Notes: generated from the sequence alone by a model not told the origin. Positions 10,639-61,806 are shown, counted from the stretch's first letter. The stretch: DNA of 64,000 nt from Candidatus Obscuribacterales bacterium (GCA_965228855.1 CBDDIJ010000002.1:224001-288000); one strand, 5' to 3'. Made by a program: numbers and translations.

Positions 10639-10668
10639 AGAGTCGCCGGATGCTTTTCCGGCGACTCT
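10639..10668. terminator. GC-rich hairpin at the 3' end of the NAD cluster
   Basis: AGAGTCGCCGGA / TCCGGCGACTCT 12-bp perfect stem; no clear U tail. Confidence 0.6.
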
Positions 10669-10683
10669 TCCTGAACAGACCGT

Positions 10684-10703
10684 CTACTATCTGTTGTCAT
10701 ACA
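10684..10703 (-). promoter_or_regulatory. cluster-end bipartite motif (TGTAT-N7-GATAGTAG on minus strand)
   Basis: CTACTAT 16 bp beyond the hairpin, as at the other cluster ends. Confidence 0.5.
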
Positions 10704-10819
10704 GTCGACGATAAAAAAAAATCGCGACTACGTCGCCCATCAAGCCCGCAATCTCAAGTGATGCCCCTCTAGACCGCAATCTCAATCTCGAGTAATGCAC
10801 CGTCAAGCCGCACCGTTTG

Positions 10820-11270
10820 AAAAAGTGGGAAAAACAAATCACTTTTCGCCCAAAACTGATCGATTTTTGCCACATTTCCTTTTCCGAATCGAAAATCGGT
10901 GGAGCCAGACCGAATCGGCGGAAGCAAACGGAATCCGCGGAGCCGACCGGAATCGGCGGAGCTGAAACTGAGTCCGCGGAGACTGCAATCTCAAAAAGTG
11001 GCAAAAACAGATCACTTTTCGCCCAAAACTGATCGATTTTTGCCACATTTCCTTTTCCGAATCGAAAATCGGTGGAGCCAGACCGAATCGGCGGAAGCAA
11101 ACGGAATCCGCGGAGCCGACCGGAATCGGCGGAGCTGAAACTGAGTCCGCGGAGACTGCAATCTCAAAAAGTGTGGCAAAAACAGATCACTTTTCGCCCA
11201 AAACTGATCGATTTTTGCCACATTTCCTTTTCCGAATCGAAAATCCGCGGAGCTAGACCGAATCGGCGGA
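10820..11270. repeat. tandem repeat, 173-175 bp unit, ~2.6 copies
   Basis: ATCACTTTTCGCCCAAAACTGATCG recurs at 10838, 11011, 11186 with near-identical intervening sequence. Confidence 0.93.
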
Positions 11271-11348
11271 GCAGCAGCGGAAGCGCCCCAAAAGGGGGAA
11301 GGAGAGCGCGAATCAATCGCAAACTCTCCTCCCCTCAATCACTGTGGC

Positions 11349-11564
11349 TTATTCCCAGGTGTGTGGTTTGATGCACATGCACGACCACAGCTTGCGCTGG
11401 CAACCGCTGCAAAAACGATCGTACGAAGGTTCACAGGTGGTGCAAACATCCTCGTACTTCATACCGGACTTCAATTCACCACTGCAGGTAGGGCAACACT
11501 TCTTCTGGTTGTCGGCAGGGGAAGCGCTTTTAGGGTTCAAATTGGTGTTGTTGGATGCGGCCAT
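11349..11564 (-). CDS. small Cys-rich (Zn-ribbon-like) protein, 71 aa
   Basis: GAGGTG SD before ATG 11564; CPTC, CTTC, CSGC, CMC motifs. Confidence 0.6.
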   Translation of the reverse strand: MAASNNTNLNPKSASPADNQKKCCPTCSGELKSGMKYEDVCTTCEPSYDRFCSGCQRKLWSCMCIKPHTWE

Positions 11565-11973
11565 AGTCACCTCACGTTTACTTAAAATCTGCTTGAAATC
11601 GGCTGCAGAAGAGGTTTTCCAAAAACACACAACGACCGTCACTACGAATCCGAATCACAAGGACGCTCGCCGAAACACCCACCAGACATAGTACACAACC
11701 GGTTTCACGCGAAACACGATCGTTGCTGATACTCGGGCGTATGCTTGAGTGTTTAGAGATTTGAGAAGAAAAAATGCAATCAATTACTGCAACAGGTTAA
11801 ACGAACGACTCTAATACCATCAATATCAAAAGCCTGGATAACAATTGTCAGTAGCCAATTCACGCCCTAATTTGGTTAGCACGGCTAACGCAACCCGCTC
11901 CAGAAGCCACTTGACATTCACTCCTGACAAGCTCGACGAAAGCTGCGAAACAAGACGGCTCCGCAGGTGCAAA

Positions 11974-12157
11974 GGGCCCAACGAAAGCTGCATCACCTAG
12001 AACGGCTCGGCAGCTGCAACGGCCCAACGAAAGCTGCATCACCTAGAACGGCTCGGCAGCTGCAACGGCCCAACGAAAGCTGCATCACCTAGAACGGCTC
12101 GGCAGCTGCAACGGCCCAACGAAAGCTGCATCACCTAGAACGGCTCGGCAGCTGCAG
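11974..12157. repeat. tandem repeat, 46 bp unit, 4 exact copies plus degenerate flanking copies
   Basis: GGCCCAACGAAAGCTGCATCACCTAGAACGGCTCGGCAGCTGCAAC with ACGAAAG at 11981, 12027, 12073, 12119. Confidence 0.95.
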
Positions 12158-12357
12158 CAGCTACAGCGGCCTCATCTGCATCACAAAGAACGGTCCGGCA
12201 GGTGCTGCACAGGCTCCGGCAGGTGCGAATCGGAAAAACCGATTCCATAGCCCTCAAGAAAAACAGCGGAATGGGGAATAAACCCACTCCGCTGCTCGAC
12301 ACGTTCTCAAAATCCGAAAGGCGAAATCTCCTTCTTCCCGGGAGAAACTCGCAAATT

Positions 12358-20820: not shown

Positions 20821-21897
20821 ATGCCGGACAAAAAACCAATTTTGTTTTCCACCGCCAGCTACGAATACCTGAAGAAGGCGATGATGGCGGGCGACCGGTT
20901 CGTCGACGGCTTGATCGCGCGCGGACAATCGAAAGACGGGCCGGTTTACGAAGACAAACCTTTCCCGGACGGCGAACGCTATCACCGCATCATGACCGAG
21001 GTCGCGGACCATGAAGTCATACTTCTCGGTGGCACAATCGACGATCGAGAAACAATGGAACTTCTGGATCTGGGGCAGGCGATTGTTGAGAAAGGCGCGC
21101 TGAGTCTGCTTTTGCTTGTTCCCTACTTCGGATATTCAACGATGGAACGCCAGGTGCTGCCGGGCGAAGTTGTAAAAGCGAAGAATCGCGCCAGACTGAT
21201 CTCGGCGATACCGCCGGCAGCATTCAGAAATCGGATTTTGCTCCTCGATTTGCACTCGGAAGGAATTCCTCACTACTTCGAAAACAGCCTTGTCGCCTAC
21301 CATCTGTACGCTCGCGACCTGATCATCGACGCCATTGTCGACGTTGTAAAAGAATGGCAGTCATCGGCACTGGTAGCGTCCGCGGTGGCAGACGGCAAAG
21401 GTTCTAAACCCTATGAGCGAGGCGGACGGTCCGACGAGAACTGGCTGGACGACGCCCACTTCACCCTTGCATCCACGGACGCGGGTCGGGCTAAATGGGT
21501 AGAATCACTCGCTCAAGACATGTCTGCACGCGGCATCCCCGTACACCCTGCGTTTATCATCAAACGCCGCACCTCCGGGGCTGAAACAGAAGTCGCCGAC
21601 ATCTCCGCAGACGTCGACGGAAAGTTTGTAATCATTTACGACGACATGGTGCGCACCGGCGGAAGCGCAATCAAGGCAGCCAAAGCCTATTTGAATAAAG
21701 GTGCCAGGGCAATCGCGTTGGTTTGCACCCACGGCGTCTTGCCAAAGGATTCGAAACAGCGCTTGAAAGACTCAGGCTGTTTCTTCAAAATCGTAGTCAC
21801 CGACAGCCATCCCCGGGCGGTCGAACTGGAAGATGACTTCGTAAAAGTCGTGTCAATCGCCAGCCTGCTCGAAGAAAGCATCTTCAACCATCATTGA
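20821..21897 (+). CDS. prs: ribose-phosphate pyrophosphokinase family protein, copy 2
   Basis: FPDGE, PYFGYSTMER, DLHSEG, STDAG, IIYDDMVRTGGS, CTHGV; clear paralog of 4293..5414. Confidence 0.87.
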   Translation: MPDKKPILFSTASYEYLKKAMMAGDRFVDGLIARGQSKDGPVYEDKPFPDGERYHRIMTEVADHEVILLGGTIDDRETMELLDLGQAIVEKGALSLLLLVPYFGYSTMERQVLPGEVVKAKNRARLISAIPPAAFRNRILLLDLHSEGIPHYFENSLVAYHLYARDLIIDAIVDVVKEWQSSALVASAVADGKGSKPYERGGRSDENWLDDAHFTLASTDAGRAKWVESLAQDMSARGIPVHPAFIIKRRTSGAETEVADISADVDGKFVIIYDDMVRTGGSAIKAAKAYLNKGARAIALVCTHGVLPKDSKQRLKDSGCFFKIVVTDSHPRAVELEDDFVKVVSIASLLEESIFNHH

Positions 21898-21954
21898 AGA
21901 GACATCAGAAAACTGATCGTATGATATGTTCATAACAAAATTAGAAGGCAACTT

Positions 21955-24864
21955 ATGAAATCGGTGTCGTTGAAAAACAAACTTAAAAATCACGGATTTG
22001 TTCGCGTTGCAACAGCGACTCCGAAGCTCAAGGTCGGCAATGTGACCTACAACTGTGCCGAAATTATCGAGCTCCTGAAGCAGGCGGAAAATGAGCGCGC
22101 CGCTGTGGTTTTCTTTCCCGAGCTATCATTGACCGGCTACACATGCGCAGACCTCTTCCACAACTTTGAGCTTTTGCAAGGTGCGCTTGATGGGTTGGAA
22201 ACCGTCCGAGCGGCCACCCTCAACGATTTCTCCGGTATCGCGTTTGTAGGCGTGCCGCTTCTCATAGACAACCTTGTATTCAACTGCGCTGTGGCGCTCA
22301 GCAATGGGAAAATTCTTGGTGCTGTTCCGAAAAGCTATCTGCCAAACGCAGGGGAGTTCTATGAGTGGCGCTGGTTCTCACCGGCAGAGTGCTCGGTAAA
22401 TGACTCGATTTTGCTGGGTAGTGAAACAGTTCCGTTCGGAACCGACATTTTGTTCTCCGCAGACAACTTTCCCGGGCTGGTGATCGGGCTTGACGTGTGC
22501 GAGGACGGTTGGGCAGTCGACCCTCCGTCGTTGAAGCATGCCATCATGGGCGCCACCATTATCGGAAATCTGTCAGCAAGTCCAGAGTGGGTGAGCAAGC
22601 AAGAATACAGAAGAACTCTGTTCACGATGCGCTCAGCGACACTGCTTTCGGCATACGCCTACACTTCGTCCGGCGTTCATGAATCCACTTCCGACCTGGT
22701 GTTCAGCGGACATCAGTTAATTTGCGAAAACGGCTCTCTTATCGCTCAGTGCAAACCCTTCTCCAGAGACTCAAAGTTGACTGTCGCCGACATCGACATC
22801 GAACGACTCCTGGCGGATCGAATGAGAATCAAAAACTTCGCCGACGCCAGACGACGAACGAAAGAACGACTCAAGTATCGCAAAGCTCCATTCAAAGCCA
22901 ATTTTGTGGAAGAGCCTTCAACCTTGATGCGCAAAGTCGATCCGCGTCCATTTGTGCCGAGAGATTCATTCGCGTTGAACGAACGTTGCGATGATATCTT
23001 CAACATCCAGGTAGCCGGGCTGGCGAAGCGGCTTGAGCAGCTCGGCAAAAATCCAAGCATCGTGCTCGGAATTTCCGGTGGTTTGGATTCGACTCTTGCA
23101 GTTCTCGTCGCATGCAGAACAATGGACCTGCTCGGACTGGACCGCACTAACATCCGCGGATTTACAATGCCGGGATTTGGTACGACGGAGCGCACAAAGA
23201 ACAATGCTCTGGCGCTCATGAAGGAGCTTGGAATCAAGGTCGAGCCAGTTGCCGACATCAGAGCCGCATGCCTGGAAGAGATGCGGCAGATGAAACATTC
23301 TCCGTTTGCGCAAATAAATATTGATGAGATTTACAGCCAAGCCGCAAAGAAAGTAGAGAAATCCAAAGAGTTCACGATCGACGCTATCCAAACGGCGGCA
23401 CAAGAACTCTTTTCCGATGCTTTGAGTAATCTTCCTGCAAACAGTCAGGACCTGGTTTTTGAAAACATTCAGGCCCGAATGCGCACGAAGATATTGATGG
23501 ACTCCGGATTCGTACTTGGCACCGGAGACCTCTCAGAGCTCGCCCTGGGCTGGTGTACGTACAACGCCGACCACATGAGCATGTATAACGTCAACTCCGG
23601 AGTCCCGAAAACTCTTGTACGTTTTCTCGTAAAGTGGGCCGCAGAGCACCTCTTCGAAGGAGAGACCAGACGCATTCTTATCGATATTTTCGATACTGAG
23701 ATTTCTCCGGAGCTCCTGCCTGCAGGCAAGGACGGCACCATTGCTCAAAAAACCGAAAGCTTGATCGGTCCATACGAACTTCACGATTTCTTTTTGTACA
23801 ACATGCTGCGCTTCGGTTTCAGTCCAGAAAAAATTCTATTTCTGGCGAAACATGCAAAATTTCAGGGAGAGTACGACGAGAGCGAAACTCGCGTATGGCT
23901 CAAAATTTTCATTCAGCGCTTCTTCCGAAATCAGTTCAAGCGCAACTGTTTACCCGACGGTCCCAAGGTCGGCTCTATCTGCCTTTCGCCGCGAGGTGAC
24001 TGGAGAATGCCGAGCGATGCCGATGAAACGCTCTGGTTACGTTGGGCTGAAAAAGATACTCTACCAATCGGTGCGAGTGAGACGAATACGCCGTTCAGCT
24101 CCCGTTCCACAACATCCAACTCGAATGGCAAAGGGTCGAAGAAACTCTTAAGAGTATTGCTACGCATTGATGAGCAGAATGACTTCATGCCCGGGGGGGC
24201 GCTCGCCGTCGCTGATGGCGACCAGATCGTAGACGTCTCCAACAGACTTGCCCTGAGCGGTTATTATGATCTAGTCGTGGATAGCATGGACGATCATCCT
24301 GTGGACCACGGATCATTTGCATCTCAGCATGACGGCAAGAAACCGCTGACAGACCGAGTTTCACTACACGGCATCGATCAGCAGCTCTGGCCGGACCATT
24401 GCGTCTCCGGAACACAAGGCGCTGAATTTCATCCGAAACTAGACCGCTCAATGGTCGCCATGACCGTCAAAAAGGGACAGGACAAGCGTGTCGACAGCTA
24501 CAGCGCATTCTATGACAACGGTCGCCACGCCAACGTAGGCAACAAGAAGCAAAACCAGTTCCTGGGACAATCCACTGGATTGGCTGATTATCTGCGACAG
24601 TGCGCCGAAGAGCGCAAAGCAACTGCAATCCAAATCGACATCGTCGGTCTGGCTCTTCCCTTCTGCGTGACATACAGCGCGAAGGATGCACGAGAGGAAA
24701 TGTATAAAGGCAGACCATTTGATGTGCGCGTAATTGCCGACGGCGTCAAGGCTATCGAACTGCAAGACGGCGATTTTGAGCGGTCGCTAGCGGACCTGAA
24801 AAAATCAGATATTGAAATTATCACAAGCAAAGACGTACTTGCCGAGCTCACAGCGAAACGCTGA
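21955..24864 (+). CDS. nadE: glutamine-dependent NAD+ synthetase fused to nicotinamidase (PncA), copy 2
   Basis: FPEL, PKSYLPN, VCED, GISGGLDS, ENIQARMR, GTGDLSE, NQFKR, SPRGDWRMPSD; PncA DEQNDFMPGGALAV, WPDHCV, DSYSAF, GLALPFCV. Confidence 0.93.
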   Translation: MKSVSLKNKLKNHGFVRVATATPKLKVGNVTYNCAEIIELLKQAENERAAVVFFPELSLTGYTCADLFHNFELLQGALDGLETVRAATLNDFSGIAFVGVPLLIDNLVFNCAVALSNGKILGAVPKSYLPNAGEFYEWRWFSPAECSVNDSILLGSETVPFGTDILFSADNFPGLVIGLDVCEDGWAVDPPSLKHAIMGATIIGNLSASPEWVSKQEYRRTLFTMRSATLLSAYAYTSSGVHESTSDLVFSGHQLICENGSLIAQCKPFSRDSKLTVADIDIERLLADRMRIKNFADARRRTKERLKYRKAPFKANFVEEPSTLMRKVDPRPFVPRDSFALNERCDDIFNIQVAGLAKRLEQLGKNPSIVLGISGGLDSTLAVLVACRTMDLLGLDRTNIRGFTMPGFGTTERTKNNALALMKELGIKVEPVADIRAACLEEMRQMKHSPFAQINIDEIYSQAAKKVEKSKEFTIDAIQTAAQELFSDALSNLPANSQDLVFENIQARMRTKILMDSGFVLGTGDLSELALGWCTYNADHMSMYNVNSGVPKTLVRFLVKWAAEHLFEGETRRILIDIFDTEISPELLPAGKDGTIAQKTESLIGPYELHDFFLYNMLRFGFSPEKILFLAKHAKFQGEYDESETRVWLKIFIQRFFRNQFKRNCLPDGPKVGSICLSPRGDWRMPSDADETLWLRWAEKDTLPIGASETNTPFSSRSTTSNSNGKGSKKLLRVLLRIDEQNDFMPGGALAVADGDQIVDVSNRLALSGYYDLVVDSMDDHPVDHGSFASQHDGKKPLTDRVSLHGIDQQLWPDHCVSGTQGAEFHPKLDRSMVAMTVKKGQDKRVDSYSAFYDNGRHANVGNKKQNQFLGQSTGLADYLRQCAEERKATAIQIDIVGLALPFCVTYSAKDAREEMYKGRPFDVRVIADGVKAIELQDGDFERSLADLKKSDIEIITSKDVLAELTAKR

Positions 24865-25612: not shown

Positions 25613-25642
25613 ACAGTGCTCGGGCGGTGGCGCCCTGTTTTC

Positions 25643-25681
25643 GCAAAGTCGCCAGGCGAGCAGCACGCCTGGCGACTTTGC
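25643..25681. terminator. hairpin at the 3' end of the TraR/DksA gene
   Basis: GCAAAGTCGCCAGGCG / CGCCTGGCGACTTTGC 16-bp perfect stem. Confidence 0.6.
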
Positions 25682-25695: not shown

Positions 25696-25919
25696 CTACT
25701 ATCTAATATCGTGCTCGTCAAGTCCCCAATGACTTGTCCGTAGAGGCTTTGCGAGACTTCCCTCTCCTAACGAATCCAATTTGTCTATCGTACGATGCCG
25801 GAATTTCGAAATTCCGGCATTCCAGGATAGACAAAATCGTCCTTTCAAAAACACGAATTTCCAGTATCCCTCTGGCAAAGCCTCTTTCGAAGCCACGTCG
25901 ATATTAGGTTCTATAGTAG
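25696..25919. promoter_or_regulatory. symmetric module: outward TAGTAG motifs (25696-25715 minus, 25900-25919 plus) flanking a 56-bp palindromic element (25780-25835)
   Basis: TTTGTCTATC...GATAGACAAA enclosing the perfect 26-bp palindrome ATGCCGGAATTTCGAAATTCCGGCAT; both motifs exactly 84 bp from the element ends. Confidence 0.75.
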
Positions 25920-25933: not shown

Positions 25934-25959
25934 GACGGAGGCGAAAAGTCGCCTCCGTC
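25934..25959. terminator. hairpin at the 3' end of the lipoprotein gene
   Basis: GACGGAGGCGA / TCGCCTCCGTC stem. Confidence 0.6.
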
Positions 25960-30709: not shown

Positions 30710-30932
30710 CTACTATACTCGACAGGACTTACAACTAGACAGGACGAGGGTTTCGGGCTTTTCGCTCGCACTGGGAGCACTTTTGTCTACGCCACAATGC
30801 CGGATTTCGGCAAAAGCGTCATTGCCACGTAGCCAAACCGAAAGTTTTCTGAGATTCACGCGACGAGAATCGGCGCAAACCCTGGAGGCATCGACCTCTA
30901 CAAAACACCTCAGATACGGACTTTTATAGTAG
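30710..30932. promoter_or_regulatory. module: TAGTAG motifs (30710-30729 minus, 30913-30932 plus) flanking palindromic element 30782-30837
   Basis: TTTGTCTACGCCACAATGCCGG...CATTGCCACGTAGCCAAA; motifs 72 and 95 bp from the element ends. Confidence 0.7.
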
Positions 30933-35216: not shown

Positions 35217-35537
35217 CCGATGAAAAAACAACAGATGTGTGAAAAACAGCACAAAAATCCTCGAAAACGGCCTCGTTTTTTACACACTCCGCCAGAGCGA
35301 CTCGTTTTTCTGTCTAAGCGCACTCAATTCGTACTCACCGATGAAAAAGCGGACCTCACCGATGAAAAACAGCAGATGTGTGAAAAACAGCACAAAAATC
35401 CTCGAAAACGGCCTCGTTTTTTACACACTCCGTCAGAGCGATTCGACCTCACCGATGAAAAACAGCAGATGTGCGAAAAACAGCACAAAAATCTTCGAAA
35501 ACGGCCTCGATTTCTGCACACTCCGGTCAGAGCGATT
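35217..35537. repeat. ~93-bp A-tract-rich direct repeat, 3 copies
   Basis: CCGATGAAAAA...CAGCACAAAAATCCTCGAAAACGGCCTCG starting at 35217, 35359, 35452. Confidence 0.9.
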
Positions 35538-42902: not shown

Positions 42903-43202
42903 CTACTAGATCATACAGGATTCACAGAACCCGAAAACACAAGCCCAGAGAGGGTATTCGGCATGTCAGGTTCTACCGCGGTTAGATTTGTCTACGTGAC
43001 GATGCCACTTTTCGGAGATTCCGTCGCTCTCAGATAGCCAGGACTCACGGCCTACTACAGTGCTTGTCTACGCCACGATGCCACTTTTCGGAGAATCCGT
43101 CGCTCTCAGATAGCCAAATCAAAGTACCCGTTCGACGGCATGTCCCAAAACCGCCTACCTGAGGCAACTTCCGACGATAGCTTGTCCTATATTTGCTAGT
43201 AG
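42903..43202. promoter_or_regulatory. module with two tandem palindromic elements (42987-43042, 43063-43118) and outward TAGTAG motifs (42903-42922 minus, 43183-43202 plus)
   Basis: TTGTCTACG..ACGATGCCACTTTTCGGAGA.TCCGTCGCTCTCAGATAGCCA duplicated; each motif 84 bp from its nearest element. Confidence 0.75.
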
Positions 43203-47693: not shown

Positions 47694-47833
47694 TGCAATT
47701 CTCCTGATGGAAGTTGGGAGTGACGCGCACAGCACCGCAGATGGTGCCCGAAGCGCCAGATGGATTTCACACGCCGTCCGCTGCAAACTCTGACGAGAAA
47801 GCTACAAAGCGGCGAAACGAGAACGAACGGACG

Positions 47834-48220: not shown

Positions 48221-48398
48221 AGCGAGAATCCCGCTGTTCGACGTTTCGTTTGCCGAATAGATTCGGCGGTGAGGCACTTCCGAAACGGATGAGATGACAC
48301 GTTTGCCACCACCATCCGCCTGTAACTGTTCGTCATTCGGTCGGCACCGGTAGCGATGGATGATACCACCACCACCGGTACCAAACACGCAAGGAAGC

Positions 48399-49040
48399 TT
48401 ACTTCTTCTTGCCGGCGCCCGGGATTTCCATCGGGGCGTCCGTGCCGGTCTCGTAGGCCTTCTTGGCGTCGGAGGTCAGCACGATGATGTACATCTGGTC
48501 GAGCGCCGCCTGGCCGGTCTGGACGTTGGAGCCGATGCGGGCCTTGAGCGCCGAGGACGGGAAGAAGTTGCCGAGGAACATGGACTTCACGAGCCCTTCC
48601 TGGCGCCAGTAGTCGTAGACGCGCAGCATGTCGATCAGCTTCGTCTGCTTCTGCTTGTAGGCTTCGCGGCCGGCGCGGACGAAGTCGACGATGCGGTCAT
48701 AGAGGTCGAGCTGCCCCTTCAGGTCCGGGTAGGCCTCGGTGATTGCCGAGAACATCGAACCGCCGGTGCCGGGCTCCATCTTGCCCTCGTAGCGACCCTT
48801 GACCGCGTCCTCGATGATCTGATCGAGCTTGTCGGACTTCAGGTTGGCGACGCCGACCTGCTCGTAGAACGAGGACTTGAACGAGGAGAGCTCGTTCTGG
48901 TTGTCGAGGTACTGCGCGGAGAGGCTGGTCTCCATGCGGATGCCGTCGTTGCGCATGCCGTTGACGTAGCCGTAGAAGCTGACCGCGCCGATGACGAGGG
49001 CGGCGATCACGCCGAGGGTGATCATCAAACCTTTGCTCAT
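48399..49040 (-). CDS. LemA-like single-TM protein, paralog B
   Basis: Near-identical to 47058..47693; AGGAG SD. Confidence 0.7.
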   Translation of the reverse strand: MSKGLMITLGVIAALVIGAVSFYGYVNGMRNDGIRMETSLSAQYLDNQNELSSFKSSFYEQVGVANLKSDKLDQIIEDAVKGRYEGKMEPGTGGSMFSAITEAYPDLKGQLDLYDRIVDFVRAGREAYKQKQTKLIDMLRVYDYWRQEGLVKSMFLGNFFPSSALKARIGSNVQTGQAALDQMYIIVLTSDAKKAYETGTDAPMEIPGAGKKK

Positions 49041-49162
49041 GTGTATTCTCCTGATAGGAAGTTGACAGAGTTTGAGCGCCACCACCATTGGTGCCGCTCA
49101 GTTTGCTCGAGGTGTGCGGCAAAAGCGCTCGGTCGTCGAGTCGCTCCGTCGCACTGTTGCGT

Positions 49163-50542
49163 CTAGCGGCGAAAGCGCCGGAAGACGTCGTCGCCGGCGG
49201 CAATGCAGATGCCCCAGGCGACCGCGGCGAAGAACAGCATCGCGAAGAGGATGCCTATCATCTGGCCGGTGGTCGGCTCGATTTCGGTGAGCAGGTAAGC
49301 GAAACCGCCCTTGCCGTCATCGCCGCCCATGCGCACGCGCTCGAACTTGTTCTTGCCCCAGAGAATGTTCTCCAGGACGCCCGAGGAGAGCGACACGCTG
49401 ACCTTGTCTTGCGACAGAACCTTCGCCGTCGGATTGCCGAGCAGCGTCTGCGGATCCAGCGCGACACCCTTGAGGTCGTACTGGAGCTGGAGCAAGAGAT
49501 GCTCGTTGCCCATCGGCATGCCGGTCGTTCCGCGAGCCCAGTCGACGGTTTTGCCGTCCTTCGTGCCGAGCACGATGACGACGCCGTTCTTCGACAGAGC
49601 CTGCTTCTCGAACTTCTCGGACTGCCAGTACGCGGTGAGCGCGCCGGCGTAGTTGTCCGGGTTCGTGACCTTGTTGGCGTCGACGACGACCAGATGCAAG
49701 TCGCCCTGCAGCATGGTGCCGAAGGCAGCGTTGAACCGGTTGATCGCCCCTCGCCAGTCGCCTGCCGGCGGAGTGACGCCGACGAAGTAGGCGCGGTCCA
49801 GGTAGTAGAACCCGTAGACGTCGTTGTCGCGAGCGATTTCCGGGAACAGATTCGCCTTCGAGTACTGGTCCACTTCGCTGTTGAAGCGCTTGAGGATCGA
49901 GGACTGCGAGGCGAGGATGTAGTTGGCGTACGGCTTGCGAGCCGTCACCGGACCGGGGTTGCCCGAGTTGAGCCGGTCGCTGGCGCGCTGCCAGAAGTCG
50001 GGCACGCCGGAGGCGTAGTGCGACGGCACGCGAGTCCAGCGACGCCACCGGTGATTGTCCGGGTCGGTCGGCAGGTTGTGCCAGGCGATGGTGTAGTCAC
50101 CGAGGGTGGTGTGAACGACGAAGGTCCACTCGTAGTCCGTGTAGGGGCACGAGTGATATTCGGTGCGTTCGCACTCCTTCTCGACGCGCTTGCGACCGCC
50201 CTTGCCGTCATCGACGTAATAGGAGCAGTCGTACTTGACCTTGTAAGGGTCGCAGTCGTAGCAGCGCTTGCACCAGCCGTCGCGCTCGCACTTGATCTTC
50301 TCCCAGGTCACGCCGGTTTCCCAACCGGTCCAGTTCTCAGTGAAGGTCACCTGGTTGCTGATCGCCATCTGACGTCCGACATACGCCGTTCCCGGAATGA
50401 CGAGAACGAGCATGACGGCGCCGGCGATGAGAAATTCCTTGTTCGTGATTCGCTTCTCGGAGTTTGTCTTCTCCAAGTAAACCTTTGCCGCATAGCCCAC
50501 CGCGAGGGTGATTGCAGCTGCAAGAAGAACCAACAAAATCAT
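49163..50542 (-). CDS. membrane protein with Cys-rich insert and TPM-like domain
   Basis: Two N-terminal TMs, C..DGWC..CYDCDPY..., 'SKNGVVIVLG' TPM-like motif, C-terminal TM; GGAGG SD 9 nt before ATG 50542. Confidence 0.7.
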   Translation of the reverse strand: MILLVLLAAAITLAVGYAAKVYLEKTNSEKRITNKEFLIAGAVMLVLVIPGTAYVGRQMAISNQVTFTENWTGWETGVTWEKIKCERDGWCKRCYDCDPYKVKYDCSYYVDDGKGGRKRVEKECERTEYHSCPYTDYEWTFVVHTTLGDYTIAWHNLPTDPDNHRWRRWTRVPSHYASGVPDFWQRASDRLNSGNPGPVTARKPYANYILASQSSILKRFNSEVDQYSKANLFPEIARDNDVYGFYYLDRAYFVGVTPPAGDWRGAINRFNAAFGTMLQGDLHLVVVDANKVTNPDNYAGALTAYWQSEKFEKQALSKNGVVIVLGTKDGKTVDWARGTTGMPMGNEHLLLQLQYDLKGVALDPQTLLGNPTAKVLSQDKVSVSLSSGVLENILWGKNKFERVRMGGDDGKGGFAYLLTEIEPTTGQMIGILFAMLFFAAVAWGICIAAGDDVFRRFRR

Positions 50543-51422
50543 GCCGGTCATCCTCCTATTCGAAAAGAGGTTGAGGTTGACGACGCCTCGGCTAACGGCT
50601 GCCCGATGAAACGGAACCGCCAGTCGAGACGTCGGTGTTGCGAAGCCCTGAAGCGCCAGAGCCCAGAAATTCAAACTCTCGCTTGACCGCGCACCGCCCC
50701 CATCAGCAATTAAGCCTTGATGAGAGTCGGAAATCGTGCGCGAATGAGGGTTGGAGTTGGTTTACGTCTAGAGAGAGTTGTTGTCAAGCGATTCTTTATT
50801 AGTACCAGGTATAGATATTGTGAAGCACGCTTAATATTTTCGTTTAAAACCGTTTACAATTCTCTTGGCAACAAGCAAAAACCGCCACGACTGCCTCTTT
50901 TACTTCCGGATTGCCTGAGTCCGGTCGGCGATATCGCAGATGAATTCTGAACCGACCGATTAGCTGACCTGCGCGAGCCCGACCACCGTTTTGAAATCGT
51001 GCGCGACCTTATGCGGAAACAGCGTCGTGCCAATTGTCCCGCTTCGCCTCCGGTAAGAGGTCAAAAACGTAGAACTGACGACAAGGTAGACGGCCGTTGC
51101 TGAACAGTTAGCGCGAACCTGGCGCATCGCCCGAAACGCCGCGCTGAAGCCAATGTAACGAGAGTTAAACGAGCAACATCTCAAAACCATTACGAAAATA
51201 AACGTTCCTTGGAAAGAAAACTTCTGTAGGTTTCAAGTACATCTTCCTTCCAAAAACCAAACTAAATCCAGGCACAGAAACACAAGCCAATTAAACGCGA
51301 ATCTACTCCACTACAGCTTTCATCGCTGCATGAGTTGATCCGCGCCCTGGATTGAAGCACCACTGCTGGTGCCTCTCGTTTGGAAGATGGAGTTGAAACG
51401 TCCAACCAGAAGGAAATTGCAA

Positions 51423-52900: not shown

Positions 52901-53087
52901 CTACTATATCCCGGCGTATCTACTGTCAAGAGGGCGCAACGTTTCGGGACTCAGCCAGCTTACTATATTCCGGCGTATTTACTTTCAAGCGGGTGCAGCG
53001 TTTCGGGACTTTCATATGAATAAGAAGCGCCTGTGTCTACGACTCATTGCCGGATTTTCGCAATTCCGTCTATGCCTCGTAGACACG
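52901..53087. promoter_or_regulatory. module with tandemly duplicated motif (59-bp repeat; 52901-52920 and 52960-52979, minus) and palindromic element 53032-53087
   Basis: Minus strand TTGA(C/A)AGTA(G/A)ATACGCCGG(G/A)ATATAGTA(G/A) twice; TGTCTACGA...TCGTAGACA element 72 bp from the second motif. Confidence 0.7.
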
Positions 53088-54603: not shown

Positions 54604-55227
54604 GCCCCATCTGCATCAAATAGTTTCAGGGACCGGACGATTTTCGCCGGTCCTTTTCGTTGGCACAGTAAGATTTCGACTGCTTTGATGCGGACGTTTT
54701 GCCCTCTTTATCGACGGACCGGTTCTAGATCGTGCCCTGTCAATCCCACAGCGACGATTTTGGCGAATTCCGTCGCTCTCTCATTGACAGACCGATCCAA
54801 TTCCAGACCGTCTAAGAATCTCGCGTCGAGCCGTTTAGAACAAGCCCAGCCTCGAACCATCCTGCTCAGCTTCAAGCAAACGTTGTGATAGCTAGCGCGA
54901 GTTACCAAGAAGCGATTTCAAACTCAAACACCTGTACAGCTTTATCTTTTGGTTAAAGTTAACAGTTGTAAAGAGGACTCTGTTTACAACACTTCTTTTG
55001 TTGAGACGAAGTCTTTCTGATACCAAGAAGACATTCTCAACACAACTTCTTCTCTGAAAGGGTCCTTATCCACCAAAACACTTGATAAAACCCATTTCCG
55101 CGCGCAGACTTCTTCACTCACCAGTGAGGACGATGCACACCGCGCGCTACTCCACCCAGCGATGCATTTTGCATCTGAGACTTCCATTTGTCTCAAGACT
55201 GGCACTCACATTTACCTGGAGCAATTT

Positions 55228-56103: not shown

Positions 56104-56151
56104 TTCGCACCGCGGTTTTTGTTCAACAGACTCAACCTCATGGAGGTTTCA

Positions 56152-57348
56152 TTGAATCCAATCTTGCGAAGATATCTGGGCGGCGCAGCGTTTGTCGTCG
56201 CCGCTCTGGTCGCCGGCGGCATCTGGCTCGCCACCACCGACAGTACCGAACTCGGCATGACCGATTTCCCGATCGGCACGGACGTGCGCCTGGAAGTCGC
56301 GAAGGACGCCGAGATTCGCACCGTCGAACTCTACGCCGATCGCGTCACAGCCAAGCATTCCGTCGCCACCCTCAGCGACGGTAGCATCACGAACTACTGG
56401 TACCGCGCCGACGGCACGCTCGAGAAAGCGGTCACTGAAGGTCCGCCCGATGCCGCCGGCGTCCGCATGGTGAAGCGGCAAGCAGAGGTCGCGCCGGACG
56501 GTTTCACCTACCTGTACGACGTCGAGTATCTCGCCGACGGCAGCAAGTCGAAAGAGACGAAGTTCGAGCAAGGCAAGTTGCTGCGCTCGTACTTCCACGC
56601 CAATGGCATCGCCCGGCGCGTGCAGGTGATCGTCGCCGAGAAGAAGGGCTGGCGGCTGACTCAGGAGGACTTGTATCGTCCGGACACGTCGCTTGTGGAA
56701 AGCGTGCGATACGGCGACAACGACTCCTGGGAACGCAAGTTCTTCAACGAGCAGAACGTGCTCCTGAGTTCGAAGGCGATGGGTGCCTACGGCACGCGGT
56801 ACACCGAGGTGGAGTACTATCCGGACGGCGTCACCAGACAGCGCATGGTGGAGCAGAACGGGCAGGGCACCAAGCTCACGACCTACCGAACCAACGGCGC
56901 GAGGGACCAGGAGCGCGTCTTTAGCGGTCCGGTCACAGGCTCGAACCTGGTCGTCACGGCTTACGACTCGCACGACCGCTTGAGCTTCCAGCAGTGGTGG
57001 TCGTTCGGCGAGAGCGGCTATTACATGTGGCAGCTCAAAACCTTCCGCGAGAACGGCTCGATGGCGAAGTCCGTCTACTTCGAGAAAAACAGCAAGGGCG
57101 CCACAGAGGTCGTCTTCAAGGGCGACGGTGCCTACCACAGCGACTTCACTCGCCGAAAGTTCCGGAACGAGGACGGCAAGCTCGAACTCGAAGAAGACGA
57201 GGTCAAGAACAAGGTGGTGGCCACTCGGCATTTCTCGCCCGAGCGCAACATCAAGCTTCAGCTGCCGAAAGAACAGCTGGAGCTCAAGGACGTGTCGCCC
57301 CTGCCGCGGCAAGTCATCGAATACGCGCCCGCACCGATGGGCCGATAA
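56152..57348 (+). CDS. membrane-anchored MORN-variant/YwqK-like beta-repeat protein, paralog 1
   Basis: N-terminal TM; repeated Y(R/Y)xDG(T/V) hairpins; GGAGG SD before TTG 56152. Confidence 0.7.
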   Translation: MNPILRRYLGGAAFVVAALVAGGIWLATTDSTELGMTDFPIGTDVRLEVAKDAEIRTVELYADRVTAKHSVATLSDGSITNYWYRADGTLEKAVTEGPPDAAGVRMVKRQAEVAPDGFTYLYDVEYLADGSKSKETKFEQGKLLRSYFHANGIARRVQVIVAEKKGWRLTQEDLYRPDTSLVESVRYGDNDSWERKFFNEQNVLLSSKAMGAYGTRYTEVEYYPDGVTRQRMVEQNGQGTKLTTYRTNGARDQERVFSGPVTGSNLVVTAYDSHDRLSFQQWWSFGESGYYMWQLKTFRENGSMAKSVYFEKNSKGATEVVFKGDGAYHSDFTRRKFRNEDGKLELEEDEVKNKVVATRHFSPERNIKLQLPKEQLELKDVSPLPRQVIEYAPAPMGR

Positions 57349-57444
57349 CCGGGATCGACAGTGACGCACAGCCCGCCTGACAAACAGACGAAGCTGCGCG
57401 TCACGTCTCCTCTAACGCAACCTCTGGAATCGAAGGAGGACTCG

Positions 57445-58632
57445 ATGAACAATCGTCTTCTCTCCGTACTGGGCATTGCGGCTCTGTCGATAGCGGCAGC
57501 CGCCGTGTCCATCTATGCCACCAGCAGCAATACCGCACTGGAGAACGGAGCCTTCCCGGCCACCACTCCCGTGCGCGCAGAACTGCATCTGAGCGAAACG
57601 ATTCGTTCGGTGGAATTCTATCCGGACGGTATCACTCCCCGACAGGGTGTCGCGGAGAACAACGACGGCTCGAAGACGACCTTCAGCTACCGGGCTGACG
57701 GCACGCTCGAAAAGGTCGTCACCATGGGCGTCGCCGACGCCAACGGTATCCGCGCCACACTGCGCTACGCCGAAATCGCAGCGGACGGTCAGACCTACGC
57801 GTACGACGTCGAATGGACTTCAGACGGCAGCAAGCGCAAGGAGACCCGGCTCGTCAACGATGCGACCACCGAGCGCAGCTACTTCTACGCCGACGGCAAT
57901 GTTCGTAAGTCGCAGGTGATCGCGCTCGACAGCAAAGGCTGGAAGCTCGTCACCGAGGACGTCTATCGCGAAGACCGTACGCTCGCCCACACGCTCCGGT
58001 CCGGCAAATACGACGCCTTCGAGTCGACCGACTATGCGGCCGACGGTGTCCGTGCTGTTTTCGTGAAGAAGTTCACTCCCGGTCAGTACGTCGAGCTCAC
58101 TTTCGCCGACGACGGGGTGACCAGGCTCCGTGAAGTGATGCAGCGGTCGGACGGAACGACCATCACCGTTCGTCGACTGGACGGCACCACGGCGGAGAAG
58201 CGCCAATGGACGAGTGCTGTCAATCAGGGCTCGATGGTGGTCGAAGTCATGAACGACGCCGGCAAGCTCACCTACGACAACTGGTGGACCTGGAAGGACA
58301 ACAAATACACCCTCTGGTCTTACCGCGAATACCGCGCCGACGGCACGAACTCGCGGCAAATCATCTTCGCGAGCGACGGCAAAACCGTTGAGACTGAGCT
58401 CGTCTACGACGGCGACGGACGCTTCGGTACCGACAACTTCCTGCGCCGCAAGTACCGTCCCGACGGCACACTTGCGACCGAGGAGGTGGTCGTGAAATAC
58501 AAGACCGTCAGCACCGTCGAATTTACGGTCGCTGACGACAAGCGAATCGCCCTCGACGCGAGTCGTCTCGTCGACAGCGAATACACGGCACCGCCCACGG
58601 TGGTACCGTACACGCCGCCGAGCGGGCCCTGA
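57445..58632 (+). CDS. membrane-anchored MORN-variant/YwqK-like beta-repeat protein, paralog 2
   Basis: Same architecture (VEFYPDG, YRADGTLEK, KGWKL); AAGGAGG SD. Confidence 0.7.
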   Translation: MNNRLLSVLGIAALSIAAAAVSIYATSSNTALENGAFPATTPVRAELHLSETIRSVEFYPDGITPRQGVAENNDGSKTTFSYRADGTLEKVVTMGVADANGIRATLRYAEIAADGQTYAYDVEWTSDGSKRKETRLVNDATTERSYFYADGNVRKSQVIALDSKGWKLVTEDVYREDRTLAHTLRSGKYDAFESTDYAADGVRAVFVKKFTPGQYVELTFADDGVTRLREVMQRSDGTTITVRRLDGTTAEKRQWTSAVNQGSMVVEVMNDAGKLTYDNWWTWKDNKYTLWSYREYRADGTNSRQIIFASDGKTVETELVYDGDGRFGTDNFLRRKYRPDGTLATEEVVVKYKTVSTVEFTVADDKRIALDASRLVDSEYTAPPTVVPYTPPSGP

Positions 58633-58727
58633 GAGACCTGCTCACCTAGCTCCTCCCCCGGCTCCGGTGTGTTTCTAGAAAACAGCGACCGCCGGAGCCA
58701 CATTCACGTAAGACGAAAGGAAATTCG

Positions 58728-59192
58728 ATGTACACATTTCTCGCCGTTATCGCCGTGACGCTCGTCCTCCAGATTGCCGAGGTCTTCTTCGGTGCACCGC
58801 CCATGGTGCAGAAGGCTTTCAACCGAGCGGACCGCATTCGCCAATATGGACGGGGGCGCGCCTATTTCTCGCTCCTGGTCCTCTATCCGCTGGCTCTCAC
58901 CGCCGCCTTCTACGCACTCGGAACCCTCGCCGGTGTCGTGGTCGGCTACGCAGATGCCTGGGCGGATGTGGGCACATTCTTCATGCTCATCATCTTCCTC
59001 GGCATCATGGGCTGCTTCTTCGCCTTCCTGCGAGACCTCGGCTCGCTCGTCGCGAGCAAGATCACCGGCAAGGAACGCGCCAGCACCGACGATGTGCGGC
59101 TGCTGACGACCGTCGTCTTCACGAGCGGCATGTACGGTTCTCTCGTCGCCGTCGCGCTGAAGACCGCCGGCATCGTCACCTTCGGTCACTGA
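58728..59192 (+). CDS. hypothetical four-TM membrane protein
   Basis: Hydrophobic ORF; AAGGA SD. Confidence 0.7.
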   Translation: MYTFLAVIAVTLVLQIAEVFFGAPPMVQKAFNRADRIRQYGRGRAYFSLLVLYPLALTAAFYALGTLAGVVVGYADAWADVGTFFMLIIFLGIMGCFFAFLRDLGSLVASKITGKERASTDDVRLLTTVVFTSGMYGSLVAVALKTAGIVTFGH

Positions 59193-59401
59193 CCATCAAC
59201 GGCGCGCTCTCACGGTAACCAAACCGCGCCGCGCCCATGACCTCTGAACGCCAGCCTTGCGGGACTGGCGTTGCGGATCAGGCGTGATGCTGGCGCTCCA
59301 CTTTGCGGGCGTCTTCGCCAATTAGCACTGGCGGTTCGACTAACTGCGGGGACGCCATGCGGCGCCCCCGTCCGTGGCAACCAAACCTTCGGGATCACCG
59401 A

Positions 59402-59977
59402 ATGATCACTTTACACATCGTGGCGAGCCTCGCGTTCGCAACCCTGCTGTATTCTCTGTCCGAGTACGTGATTCATCGCTGGCTCATGCACCGCATGCGC
59501 CTGGCGAATCTCGCGGACAGCAACACGATGCGCGAGCTGGTGCGCAACCACATGGGCAAGCACCACAAGCGCGACTACCACCACGAGACTCACGAAGAAG
59601 ACGACAAGCTCTGGCAGGTCCAGATCTTCGCGCTGATTCCGGTCACGTTCGTCGAAATCGCCTTGCTGTTCGTCGACCCGCTCACTTGCGGCGTGGTCTT
59701 CGTTTTCGGCATGGCGTACGCTTCTTTCTGGTGGGTCGTGCATCTCGAGATGCATCGCGCCGAAGGACGCTTCTTCTCTCGAACGGCGCTGTTCAAGCAC
59801 CTCGAGTTGCGTCACCAGTACCACCATGAGTTTCCGAACACGAACTTCAACGTCATCCTGCCGTTCGGAGACTGGCTGTTCGGCTCGACGCCGACCGCAA
59901 GCCAGCGCGCCAAGTTGGCAGCTGGAGAGCGCCGCAAGACTGCAAACAGACCGAAGACGGTCTCAGAAGCAGCCTGA
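59402..59977 (+). CDS. fatty acid hydroxylase / sterol desaturase family protein
   Basis: His boxes EY.IHRWLMH, H..KHH, VH..MH, HQYHH and NFNV..P..DWLFG. Confidence 0.8.
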   Translation: MITLHIVASLAFATLLYSLSEYVIHRWLMHRMRLANLADSNTMRELVRNHMGKHHKRDYHHETHEEDDKLWQVQIFALIPVTFVEIALLFVDPLTCGVVFVFGMAYASFWWVVHLEMHRAEGRFFSRTALFKHLELRHQYHHEFPNTNFNVILPFGDWLFGSTPTASQRAKLAAGERRKTANRPKTVSEAA

Positions 59978-60144
59978 GCGGCCCAATGTACACGGGACGC
60001 TACGGGGTCTCCGACGCGTTGACCACGAGTGAATGACGCACTCGCAAACTTGCCGGAGACGTCTCGATTGAGCAGGGGCAAACTTGCTCGATCGAGGCTT
60101 CGTCCCGACTTCAGCAACTTCCACCAAACCCGATGGAGGATAAA

Positions 60145-61356
60145 ATGTGGAATCGCTTTTCCGGGTTGAAGAAATCGACCCAGATTGTAATTCTCGCGGC
60201 GGCAGCTGTTTCGCTCAGCACCATCGCGCTCACCGGCGGCTACTATGCCACCAGAACCGATACCATCGACAACGTCGACCTGTACCCGGAGAAACTCCCC
60301 GTCCAGGCGCAGCTCCACGACGGAGAGACACTCCGCAACGTCGAGTTCTATGAGGACGCCATCACGCCGAAGCGTGCCGTCGCCTACAACAACGACGGCA
60401 CCCAGACCGAGTTCCACTATCGCGAGAACGGCACGCTGGAAACGGCGCAAACCGTTCGACTGAGCGAAGGCGGCGCCCGCACGATCCTGCGCAGCGCGGT
60501 GCTGGCCGACGACGGCGTCACCTACAAGCACGATGTCGAATACTTCGATGACGGCGTCCGGATTCGCAAGGAGCTCATCCTGGCGGACAACGAGACGCAG
60601 AACCGCAAGTATTTCTTCGAGAACGGCAACGTCTTCGAAGACCAGGTCATCAAGCTCGACCGGAAGGGCTGGAAGCTCGCCACCGAGTCCGAGTACCGGG
60701 CCGACAAATCGCTTGCGAGCACCTACGTCGCCACCGAAAACGACGGCTGGGACCGCAAGTACTTCGACGAGACCGGCGTGCTCACGATGTCGAAGTCGGT
60801 GCATACCTGGGCTTCTTTCTACACGGAAGTCACGTACGCGAACGGCGTCGTGCCGATTCGCACGGTGGAACAGAAGGGCTCGAGCACCACGGTCACCCTG
60901 CGGCGCGTCGATGGAACGAAGTCCGAGGTTCGCGTCTGGTACGGACCTCTGGTCAAGGCGATGATGGTCGTCACCTACTTCGACGAACAGGAACGCAAGA
61001 CCTTCTACCAGTCCTACATGTCGGACGACGACGGCAAGCCCGTGCTCAGCTCAATCACCATCTACGACAGAAACGGTGACGATGCCCGTACGGTCTACTA
61101 TGAGAGCGACGGCGAGATCAACGAAACGCTCTATACCTTCGGCGACAAGTCGAAGTGGATGCGTCGACTGTATCGCGACGACAAGACGCTCAAGCAGGAA
61201 ATTGACATGGAGATGGGCAAGGGTCAAGTCGGCACCAGGGAGTTCGAGGCTGAGGACAACATCAAGTTCGAAATCCCCGAGCAATATGTGGTCCTGCAGC
61301 CCTACACCACTCCGGAACAGGTGATCGAGTATCACCCGGACTACAACGGTCACTGA
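60145..61356 (+). CDS. membrane-anchored MORN-variant/YwqK-like beta-repeat protein, paralog 3
   Basis: Same architecture (VEFYEDA, YRENGTLE, KGWKL, QVIEY); GGAGG SD. Confidence 0.7.
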   Translation: MWNRFSGLKKSTQIVILAAAAVSLSTIALTGGYYATRTDTIDNVDLYPEKLPVQAQLHDGETLRNVEFYEDAITPKRAVAYNNDGTQTEFHYRENGTLETAQTVRLSEGGARTILRSAVLADDGVTYKHDVEYFDDGVRIRKELILADNETQNRKYFFENGNVFEDQVIKLDRKGWKLATESEYRADKSLASTYVATENDGWDRKYFDETGVLTMSKSVHTWASFYTEVTYANGVVPIRTVEQKGSSTTVTLRRVDGTKSEVRVWYGPLVKAMMVVTYFDEQERKTFYQSYMSDDDGKPVLSSITIYDRNGDDARTVYYESDGEINETLYTFGDKSKWMRRLYRDDKTLKQEIDMEMGKGQVGTREFEAEDNIKFEIPEQYVVLQPYTTPEQVIEYHPDYNGH

Positions 61357-61429
61357 GCCACGCTCACACCGCCGCAAAAACAGCGCGCGCCGCCACCACC
61401 CCTGGTGGCGCGCTCCTTCTTCCCATTGT

Positions 61430-61728
61430 CTACTATATACCGAAGTATTAATTCCTTCGACAAAGCAGCACCCACAGGCAATCTGGAGACTCAGGTAACT
61501 TTCTCAGAATAAATTTGTCTATCGTACGATGCCGGAATTTCCAAATTTCGGCATTCCTGCGTAGACATGACCCCGGTTGTCCACGAGATTTAGAAAGCCA
61601 CCGTCAATGAGAGTGCGACGGAATTCGCCAAAACTGTCGCTCTCTCATTGCCAAAACCTGATCTTTGAATTAGAAAGATGCCGGAACGCCTCACCAGTTC
61701 ACAAAATCCTTCCTAGATGTTTTAGTAG
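61430..61728. promoter_or_regulatory. module with two palindromic elements (61514-61569, 61600-61655) and outward TAGTAG motifs (61430-61449 minus, 61709-61728 plus)
   Basis: First element nearly identical to 25780-25835; distances 84 and 73 bp; hairpins at 61382-61413 and 61748-61778 outside. Confidence 0.75.
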
Positions 61729-61806
61729 AGCAGATCTGGAAAGAGCAGGCGCGTTTCGGTTTAGAACCAAAACGCGCCGCCCCTTAAGCTAGCCGGTTAG
61801 CCCAAC

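Follow-up and report, generated by a model that had tools for sequence, protein, structure and literature searches.

Several described systems join a nuclease to intergenic repeats or to operator-like sites. In the REPtrons (TnpA-REP/RAYT with REP/BIME), one nuclease gene is bordered by its own repeats, which are dispersed in intergenic DNA, mosaic, locally amplified, variable in copy number among strains and targeted by insertion sequences, and the linkers carry protein sites (BIME-1, for IHF); each REP folds into a single-strand hairpin that has GTAG at its foot and is the substrate cut by an HUH Y1 enzyme (PMC3333891). In Ssn-NTS/SRM each homologue of a small single-domain GIY-YIG nuclease that cuts single-strand hairpins is flanked by its own repeat variant, in the order repeat-gene-repeat and with single-lineage expansion (PMC11893778). 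At the protein level the nearest cases are the single-HKD PLD restriction enzymes BfiI and BmrI and the artificial chimera BmrI198-C.BclI, whose PLD domain lies N-terminal to a C-protein helix-turn-helix (HTH) reading a four-box site (PMC2094064, PMC2475615); none of these is known to occur together with dispersed repeats or to act with a second site in phase. This article concerns a 64,000-nucleotide stretch ("the window") from Candidatus Obscuribacterales bacterium (GCA_965228855.1), positions 224001-288000 of contig C2 in an assembly of 8.2 Mb and 6 contigs (G000), and two repeated elements found in it, a 54-bp palindrome (PAL) and an outward-pointing motif (END), together with their candidate nuclease, whose gene lies 121 kb outside the window and was hence invisible to the sequence-only reading in which the repeats had been described.

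These elements constitute a nuclease-repeat system superimposed on a likely terminator-boundary site, neither of which has been described: a nuclease gene is paired with PAL, PAL is phased to END, the catalytic residues of the nuclease are intact, duplications break at END and the DNA beside END diverges fast. Except for the hairpins and the Y1 enzyme, the REPtron traits listed above recur here, as do the private repeat variants, the repeat-gene-repeat order and the single-lineage expansion of Ssn-NTS, and the PLD-HTH domain order of the chimera. Differences from REPtrons are the double-strand tandem dyads, the PLD-Xre protein and the second, phased site; the GTAG of END lies about 14 bp from an unrelated hairpin, not at a REP-like foot, and an HUH Y1 transposase (PF01797) was found in 0 of 5 genomes including G000 and its sister species G040 (91–97% complete), the control registering in 6 of 14. 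Ssn-NTS differs from the two-domain PLD-HTH protein and operator-like sites found here, and BfiI and BmrI are restriction enzymes with another binding domain. A full-text literature search, which left most subscription papers outside its scope, found no description of these repeats, of the gene class rich in G and C at third codon positions (GC3) that they accompany, or of the PLD-HTH family, and no PLD-family transposase or repeat-breeding enzyme. To our knowledge no PLD-family enzyme is among the known transposase chemistries.

The pairing of gene and repeat is seen in both sister species, whose four-fold-site divergence is 0.124. In G040, a segment peculiar to that genome, with an array of 6 PALs on one side and of 4 on the other, holds the gene of a protein of 256 residues; its closest G000 homologue (54%; C2:103074-103847) stands in the order END-97-PAL-gene-PAL-85-END and is the only gene between the flanking PALs, the whole END-arm-PAL-gene-PAL-arm-END unit occupying C2:102754-104023. 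The protein consists of a PLD domain and an Xre HTH. Residues H107, K109, D114, S122 and N124 (HxKxxxxD, GSxN) and a CxxC are invariant in 33 sequences of 23–97% identity, an alignment from which one G000 paralogue without the motif was left out. In the predicted model (pLDDT 91) the PLD part matches NucT (Z 15.2; root-mean-square deviation 2.2, 131 aligned), Nuc (14.9; 2.8, 137) and BfiI (13.1; 2.6, 133), SauUSI, Zucchini and the PLD folds of TrmB regulators being among the further matches, and the HTH part matches C.AhdI, HipB and C.BclI (Z 10.9, 10.7 and 10.7, respectively). On this model the protein is a predicted nuclease of the PLD (HKD) superfamily with the Nuc/BfiI fold and an intact motif. 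Within the order, 53 of 107 genomes have matches to it, a number of which are longer proteins with only the PLD part in common, and relatives passing 1e-30 fall into at least 250 clusters. Of 181 genome loci the best 80 were sorted by coverage: both domains are matched in 27 (22 labelled Obscuribacterales, Obscuribacter or Melainabacteria, 5 otherwise) and the PLD part only in 53. Relatives were not found in viral contigs, the ESM Atlas gave HTH-type matches only, below 0.9, and PADLOC gave only domain-level matches, to Mokosh PLD and control proteins.

PAL stands on both sides of the gene at all four loci of the protein's own clade and at 0 of the other 102 loci. Beyond this clade, a blind detector found strict tandem dyads within 450 bp at 19 of 53 PLD+HTH loci, 0 of 53 loci of PLD-only or other fusions and 4 of 150 random genes, the PLD+HTH counts not being independent since a few loci are near duplicates or close kin. 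The period is 32–34 bp in 18 of the 19, and the sequences differ between lineages, each locus having its own. Four of the five G000 paralogues keep the catalytic motif: the one at C2:1042k is bracketed by another repeat family, F2 (46 copies in G000), and the one at C2:67368 has upstream three of the 15 copies of family F3, another six of the 15 being in the window, at 10825-11221 and 35237-35519. The fourth intact paralogue (C2:1002k; C2:1001700-1003900) is situated amid further repeats, and the fifth, at C2:917966, lacks the motif. Another genome of the order, G001, has its own core, made up of TATGC-N8-GCATA twice, which stands beside both of its paralogues and lies 62–74 bp from END in 4/4 strict copies read; G018 holds another core family, without END.

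PAL itself has 211 copies in 160 clusters genome-wide in a profile search (12–26 bits), with 0 in the reversed genome used as control. It comprises two dyads, TG(T/G)C-N11-G(A/C)C, 33 bp apart with an A/T-tract spacer between them, which is 16 bp long in 186 copies versus no more than 4 for any other length. The arms show little or no covariation: complementarity at variable columns is 0.536 versus 0.483 in shuffled sequences for the whole element, and 0.333 versus 0.393 within a dyad. Because the spacer is fixed and the arms barely covary, PAL appears to be a double-strand protein site and not an RNA hairpin. Four boxes in the DNA, with a period of 33 bp, and a C-protein-like HTH in the protein are present, and PAL may be a putative operator of the type that C proteins read in type II restriction-modification systems. 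The strict pattern occurs 122 times in G000 and 100 times in G040 and is absent from the remaining 102 of the 104 family genomes scanned, and its invariant columns differ by 0.003 per site between G000 and G040 (45 copies). Most copies (175, in 131 clusters) lie within C2:77-1125 kb, a stretch spanning dnaA at 793 kb; where two GC-rich 3′ ends meet in a gap, PAL is present in 23 of 27, compared with 64 of 160 gaps that have a single such end, 38 of 259 that have none and only 18 of 1077 gaps on contig C3. Two IS110 elements target PAL, 3/3 and 4/4 full copies being inserted at fixed places inside it (C2:774697, 858558, 1120767, 987644 and 197206; C5:860952 and 1461411), and bridge-RNA targeting is a candidate explanation for these insertions.

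The conservation and location of PAL, together with the Xre/C-protein type of HTH and the TrmB-type folds among the structural matches, would also suit a regulatory network without cutting, in which the PLD part acts as a sensor and the protein, bound to PAL and END, loops 3′ ends to silence or insulate GC-rich units. We regard this as very improbable: the catalytic motif is invariant, a private repeat family for each paralogue and rapid turnover between species fit selfish spread, and congeners regulate the same genes without PAL.

A second site accompanies PAL at set distances. A TAGTAR end lies 70–112 bp outward of 212 of 320 PAL flanks, with peaks at 74, 85, 97 and 107 bp (12 ends at 73–75, 97 at 83–87, 89 at 93–100 and 16 at 106–109 bp), while matches pointing inward over the same range number 4. 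Centre to centre the distances are 75, 86, 98 and 108 bp and fit 10.75 bp per turn. The END profile has 273 matches (control, 3), and for 257 of the 273 a PAL is no more than 400 bp away; outward ENDs on both sides are found in 61 modules, and of the 160 clusters 70 are one-ended and 19 have no END. The spacing is thus not random genome-wide, and the proposal in the sequence-only reading of a putative protein-binding site phased to a second site is supported by these distances.

Phasing of this kind is typical of activator-promoter pairs. On such a model an activator would bind upstream, at PAL, and TATAGT would be the −10 box of a promoter from which antisense RNA would run into the GC-rich units, as had been suggested from the window; the strong half of END does face the terminator in 91 of 100 cases in G000, and 157 of 212 PAL-linked ENDs are aimed at a 3′ end. 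The anatomy of END makes this improbable. Rather than a one-way bipartite motif, as first described, END is a 19-bp dyad, YTACTA-N7-TAGTAR. Its second half stands at spacer 7 in 34 of 36 copies (G001), 11 of 12 (G039) and 46 of 100 (G000); in G000 the half next to PAL is worn to TAC(G/T) and the outer half is perfect. TAGTAG is 96–100% conserved, whereas the two positions before it (T, 89%; A, 83%), which would be the TA of the −10 box, are conserved least. Such a pattern is the reverse of a sigma-70 −10 box. The strong half may face either way, being distal in 14 of 44 and 11 of 24 cases; an END aimed at a 5′ end often has a distinct TG-extended −10 after it; rpoN (PF04552) was found in 0 of 5 genomes, and the motif lacks the GG-N10-GC of sigma-54 promoters.

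The position of END is tied to terminators. It lies at least 14 bp behind a terminator hairpin in 73 of 81 cases (G000, median 15; G001, median 19, n = 33; G039, median 27, n = 10). As had been noticed in the window, the module is enriched at the 3′ ends of GC-rich units: among units with GC3 of at least 0.8, 54 of 75 have an END facing their 3′ end, as do 51 of 81 at 0.7–0.8, 26 of 78 at 0.6–0.7 and 14 of 165 below 0.6, and END is rare at divergent 5′ ends (9/77, 6/36 and 0/20). The further remark that the hairpins usually lack a U tail holds in so far as weak U tracts are usual in G000 (24 of 81 hairpins with at least 5 T in 8); it fails in G001 (22 of 33). Hairpins with END have more T than those without it (3.7 versus 2.2 of 8), so END does not replace the U tract.

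Other genera show the same placement, as do two genomes belonging to the second family of the order, mostly without a core repeat. Strict END patterns are near control counts genome-wide in most family genomes, and among 301 class genomes perfect dyads are clearly above control only in G001 (25 versus 6); the single conserved perfect dyad of gut Melainabacteria is inside coding sequence. Since strict patterns are not enriched, the order-wide claim rests on positional evidence in the stretches read (G001, G034, G039, G043, G053, G057, G104 and G105). By this placement END is older and wider than PAL, and it is likely a dyad of the host that follows the terminators of a GC3-rich class under separate regulation and marks a boundary of transcription when a dimeric protein binds it. 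A counterpart may be seen in termination by RNA polymerase I, where a DNA-bound factor acts with a hairpin and, as with END, a protein site stands at a minimum distance behind a hairpin ending strongly transcribed units (PMC13675443). That process is eukaryotic or organellar, a literature search on the point gave no bacterial counterpart, and the END binder is putative. Factors of this type are TTF-I, Reb1 and mTERF. Among 112 of 196 region proteins shared with G001 that were scanned, only TetR and Fur regulators were found and no evident END-binding candidate. A LexA box was rejected, the best dyads upstream of lexA and recA having 7 and 9 of 12 positions and neither a perfect half, and so was retro-mobility, no reverse transcriptase having been found in END-bearing G034. 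A third dispersed repeat of about 120 bp, with a different internal layout, lies near END-like sites in G044 (C29 and C70; L031-L036).

Rearrangement breakpoints at END, one of the outcomes anticipated from the window, are seen both in duplications and in indel junctions between species. When G000 is compared with 400 kb of G040, a module is no more than 200 bp from 33 of 53 indel junctions, although modules are present in just 46 of 215 gaps; several larger gene indels between the two are without a module. Of 126 END pairs within 330 bp, 84 have at least 25 bp of upstream identity, and among these 84 duplications identity is lost no more than 3 bp after END in 49 and the restart, a variable upstream point, comes 4–12 bp after END in 37. 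END-to-PAL joints (n = 53) have a gap of 5–8 bp in 26 cases, of 16–17, 26, 37, 47, 56 or 67–68 bp in 15, and are off phase in 12. Divergence between G000 and G040 over 71 sites is 0.021 per site in TAGTAG, 0.27 in the 6 bp beyond and 0.30 in the 6 bp on the inner side, peaking on either side of the dyad, against 0.061 in module-free intergenic DNA and about 0.11 in the arms. A replication-direction bias of the duplications was discarded, since by eye they occur on both strands on both sides of dnaA. In G040, two genes between PALs (SDR-like and DUF421) have no G000 orthologue and constitute cargo.

We consider it moderately probable that the modules are gene-less copies of the END-arm-PAL-gene-PAL-arm-END unit and that they are spread by the PLD-Xre nuclease, which likely binds PAL, likely reaches END and likely cuts and rejoins DNA outside END. 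The nuclease, as a dimer of dimers, would bind the four PAL boxes; arms of 7–10 turns at about 10.75 bp would put END on the same face, and a loop or wrap would bring it to the enzyme. The same HTH may read both sites, as the PAL dyads and END share CTA-N7-TAG. Cutting would take place some 4–12 bp outside END and be followed by rejoining to a nearby or in-phase site, either by the phosphohistidine transesterification of which BfiI is capable or through the repair systems of the host. The engineered BmrI-PLD/C.BclI fusion, which has the same domain order, cuts 13–16 bp from its box (PMC2094064), a distance that would correspond, counted from the outer END half, to 7–10 bp outside END; BfiI can join DNA by transesterification through its phosphohistidine (PMC2475615). 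Gene-less modules would thereby spread, occasionally with cargo, and in the G000 lineage the repeat family would have become tied to the older host END, which would explain the approximately 200 copies and their 3′-end location. A broader proposal, which we put forward tentatively and at somewhat less than an even chance, is that of a new class of mobile elements: a PLD phosphohistidine transposase with a fast-evolving Xre HTH, hundreds of variants of which each breed operator-like repeats, one family having locked onto an order-wide terminator-boundary site that delimits a GC3-rich programme around oriC.

A number of observations weigh against spread by the nuclease. PLD folds serve as non-catalytic domains in TrmB regulators, and 34 of the 53 PLD+HTH loci are without a strict tandem dyad. 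TAGTAR lies within 160 bp of 3 of 46 F2 copies, the count for a PAL subfamily (PAL-B) being 0 of 12. Arrays or dispersal in the absence of END are seen in F2, in PAL-B and in the family of G018, so END is not required for spread. END also occurs in genomes in which the query used found no homologue (genome family f2, 0 of 3). The PAL flanks are as divergent as the arms (about 0.11), so the enzyme is not visibly cutting beside its own boxes. In the 61 two-ended modules there is neither a target-site duplication (longest shared stretch 4.10 versus 3.86 shuffled) nor identity between the N7 spacers of the two ends (2.23 versus 2.39 shuffled), hence no classical transposon or integrase footprint. 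Finally, 44 of 47 G040 clusters have a G000 partner, and long-range movement must be slow.

Part of this evidence agrees with a host-driven origin, which we judge rather unlikely. A host dimer on END would form a roadblock or topological boundary after strongly transcribed units, where stalled polymerases, forks or gyrase break the DNA at the edges, and PAL would be an operator of the nuclease carried along by duplications and gene conversion. END is older and wider than PAL and keeps its distance from the hairpin, fast divergence flanks END and not PAL, and Rho was not found in G000. Gyrase gathers downstream of highly transcribed units and likes DNA with a period of about 10.75 bp (PMC6379681), the period fitted by the PAL-END distances. 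Against this, ENDs form tandem series in G000 (161 of 309) and, under a looser definition, in none of 96 END-like sites in G001 and 27 in G039, stretches rich in solo ENDs, which favours an enzyme over a host-only cause. Nor does END replace the U tract of its hairpins, the strict PAL-END phasing calls for a protein bridge, and F2 and F3 have spread too, without END.

A tyrosine recombinase is the other enzyme to be weighed. END would be its 6-7-6 core and PAL its arm sites, with integration of modules or gene cassettes into solo ENDs as at lambda att or in integrons; the dyad is perfect in G001, the G000 outer halves are perfect with the inner ones worn, two Xer-like genes lie in the region and indel junctions concentrate at modules. 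We hold this to be quite improbable, because the spacers of the two ends are not identical, breakpoints lie outside the dyad with no crossover in a shared spacer, END is rare at divergent 5′ ends and the genes are syntenic in G042, G043, G044 and G046, not shuffled cassettes. The Xer-like paralogues were also rejected as END enzyme since their family was not found at 1e-30 in END-bearing G001 and G034. These genes lie at C2:369775-370713 and C2:923144-924055, and the family occurs in 58 of 104 family genomes.

Miniature inverted-repeat transposable elements (MITEs) are non-autonomous inverted-repeat elements. The modules resemble them as gene-less, inversely symmetric derivatives of a gene-bearing unit, with occasional cargo and, in the two-ended ones, an outward END on both sides; the END-PAL-gene-PAL-END unit is a candidate autonomous partner. 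They differ from MITEs in the lack of target-site duplication, the diverged arms, the many one-ended copies and the absence of an implicated DDE enzyme.

The genes accompanied by END form a class of their own. Probable foreign sequence excepted, C2:77-1125 kb, in which the window genes 1708-63567 lie, holds nearly all genes with GC3 above 0.72; GC3 classes are bimodal around oriC. The sequence-only reading had offered captured or mobile gene cassettes as one explanation of the clusters. Window genes, however, keep largely the same order in four congeners without PAL (G042, G043, G044 and G046), and orthologues are GC3-rich across genera despite near-saturated four-fold sites (0.80 in G043, identity 0.53, n = 26; in G001, 0.70 for the rich class, n = 29, versus 0.44 for the low class, n = 77). 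Divergence is lower in the rich class (0.090 versus 0.152), and only 7 of 30 window proteins match PHROGs. On this comparative evidence a fresh capture of phage or foreign cassettes is rejected, and the class is old and vertically inherited. Plain high-expression codon bias accounts for it only in part (correlation 0.45 with the ribosomal-protein shift). The rich class has more Shine-Dalgarno matches (0.60 versus 0.37), prefers TAA, has few host-type −10 boxes and is provided with long leaders and strong terminators. A promoter-like motif, TTGHNW-N18-TASNBT, mostly 190–380 bp before the start, is found 34 times in sense versus 4 in antisense in 146 regions; other spacers give 2–4, and the motif is weak in G001 and G039. 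Members include PrkA-DUF444-SpoVR and MoxR-DUF58-VWA operons, which are linked to stationary phase, and the class is probably a separately regulated, stage-specific programme. A GC3-rich sigma-70-family factor (C2:706806-707633) with END at its own 3′ end is a candidate for its sigma factor. Sequences resembling tRNAs occur in GC-rich clusters of congeners (G043 C22, near 19340; G044 C29, L031 near 30557 and 31348 of the joined stretch).

Every one of the motif ends (11) and palindromes (7) reported earlier in the window is present at its position, including five copies matching RATAY-N7-TATAGTAR. With the 54-bp element the distances to PAL are those first given plus 1, i.e., 85 bp for five ends (25696, 25919, 42903, 43202 and 61430), 73 for 30710 and 52960, 74 for 61728 and 96 for 30932. 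The inventory lacked the PAL at 1119..1172 (two 19-bp dyads, 33-bp period), the END at 1238..1256 (+), 84 bp from it and pointing at the 5′ side of a nadD-like gene at 1708, and a PAL of subfamily B (TGTCAAT...ATTGACA; 54737..54790), without END. The END at 10684..10702 (−), behind the hairpin of gene 9960-10616 (GC3 0.74), was counted as part of a module, yet no PAL lies within 400 bp and it adjoins a different repeat family, three 49-bp F3 repeats (10825, 10998 and 11173; 10825..11221), a second tandem-dyad family also found upstream of the C2:67368 paralogue. Three more F3 repeats (35237, 35378 and 35471) occupy 35237..35519.

A complete module is seen behind a TraR/DksA zinc-finger gene (25388-25612, GC3 0.88), where a terminator-like GC hairpin (25645..25679, +) precedes by 16 bp the END at 25696..25714 (−), followed by PAL (25781..25834), END (25901..25919, +) and, 14 bp from it, the hairpin (25934..25959, −) of gene 25978-26487 (GC3 0.74). 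The next consists of END 30710..30728 (−), PAL 30783..30836 and END 30914..30932 (+), the last having a solo END as its counterpart at the orthologous place in G043; what had been taken for a hairpin ahead of 30710 is in fact part of a PAL, copied in an END-anchored duplication and situated behind a gene of low GC3. ENDs at 42903..42921 (−) and 43184..43202 (+) enclose a tandem pair of PALs (42988..43041 and 43064..43117). The END at 52901..52919 (−), described as a separate site, is the outer copy in a 59-bp END-anchored tandem duplication of the one at 52960..52978 (−), which faces PAL 53033..53086. The last module comprises END 61430..61448 (−), PAL 61515..61568, a B-like PAL (61601..61654) and a weak END (61710..61728, +).

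Gene calls were made with an own hexamer model, starts and small genes being approximate. Further tandem repeats outside the named families lie at 9642-9914 (36–38 bp) and 11926-12201 (46 bp). Among the genes of the window are a PemK/MazF-like toxin gene (9322-9702), of a bacterial toxin-antitoxin family, within a GC3-rich unit; three GC3-rich paralogues (56119-61356) whose products, each of about 410 residues, contain internal repeats and match neither Pfam nor PHROG; a duplicated gene matching PHROG 1383, a virion structural protein, beside a PHROG 2087 match (47058-50551), with named relatives that include Patescibacteria; and two paralogous NAD-salvage clusters (1708-8414 and 20821-24864; NadD-like, NAMPT-like, Prs-like and NAD synthase), one GC3-rich and the other not, both conserved in congeners. 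Scans of the window for tRNA and Rfam families gave no match (Rfam, 0 at gathering score). A contig of run X3, which is possibly not independent of the assembly, matches window 24500-35261 with zero differences, and two Hi-C runs gave 5 and 3 partial reads only. Contig C4 and C2:1-60 kb, with abrupt GC of 0.29 and 0.62–0.69, conjugation genes and core genes of other organisms, and no PAL, are probable contamination or misjoin.

The natural family associated with these repeats, of at least 250 clusters and with enzymes of about 250 residues each beside its own target, would offer a code of HTH-DNA specificities, and the enzyme would be a compact, probably metal-independent cut-and-join tool to test. 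Next to RAYT-REP and Ssn-NTS, the system may represent a third answer to the question of how intergenic repeats originate and are maintained in bacteria. END, in turn, exposes an unreported two-class genome organisation in the Obscuribacterales, with a GC3-rich class that has its own promoter type, strong terminators and a likely boundary site.

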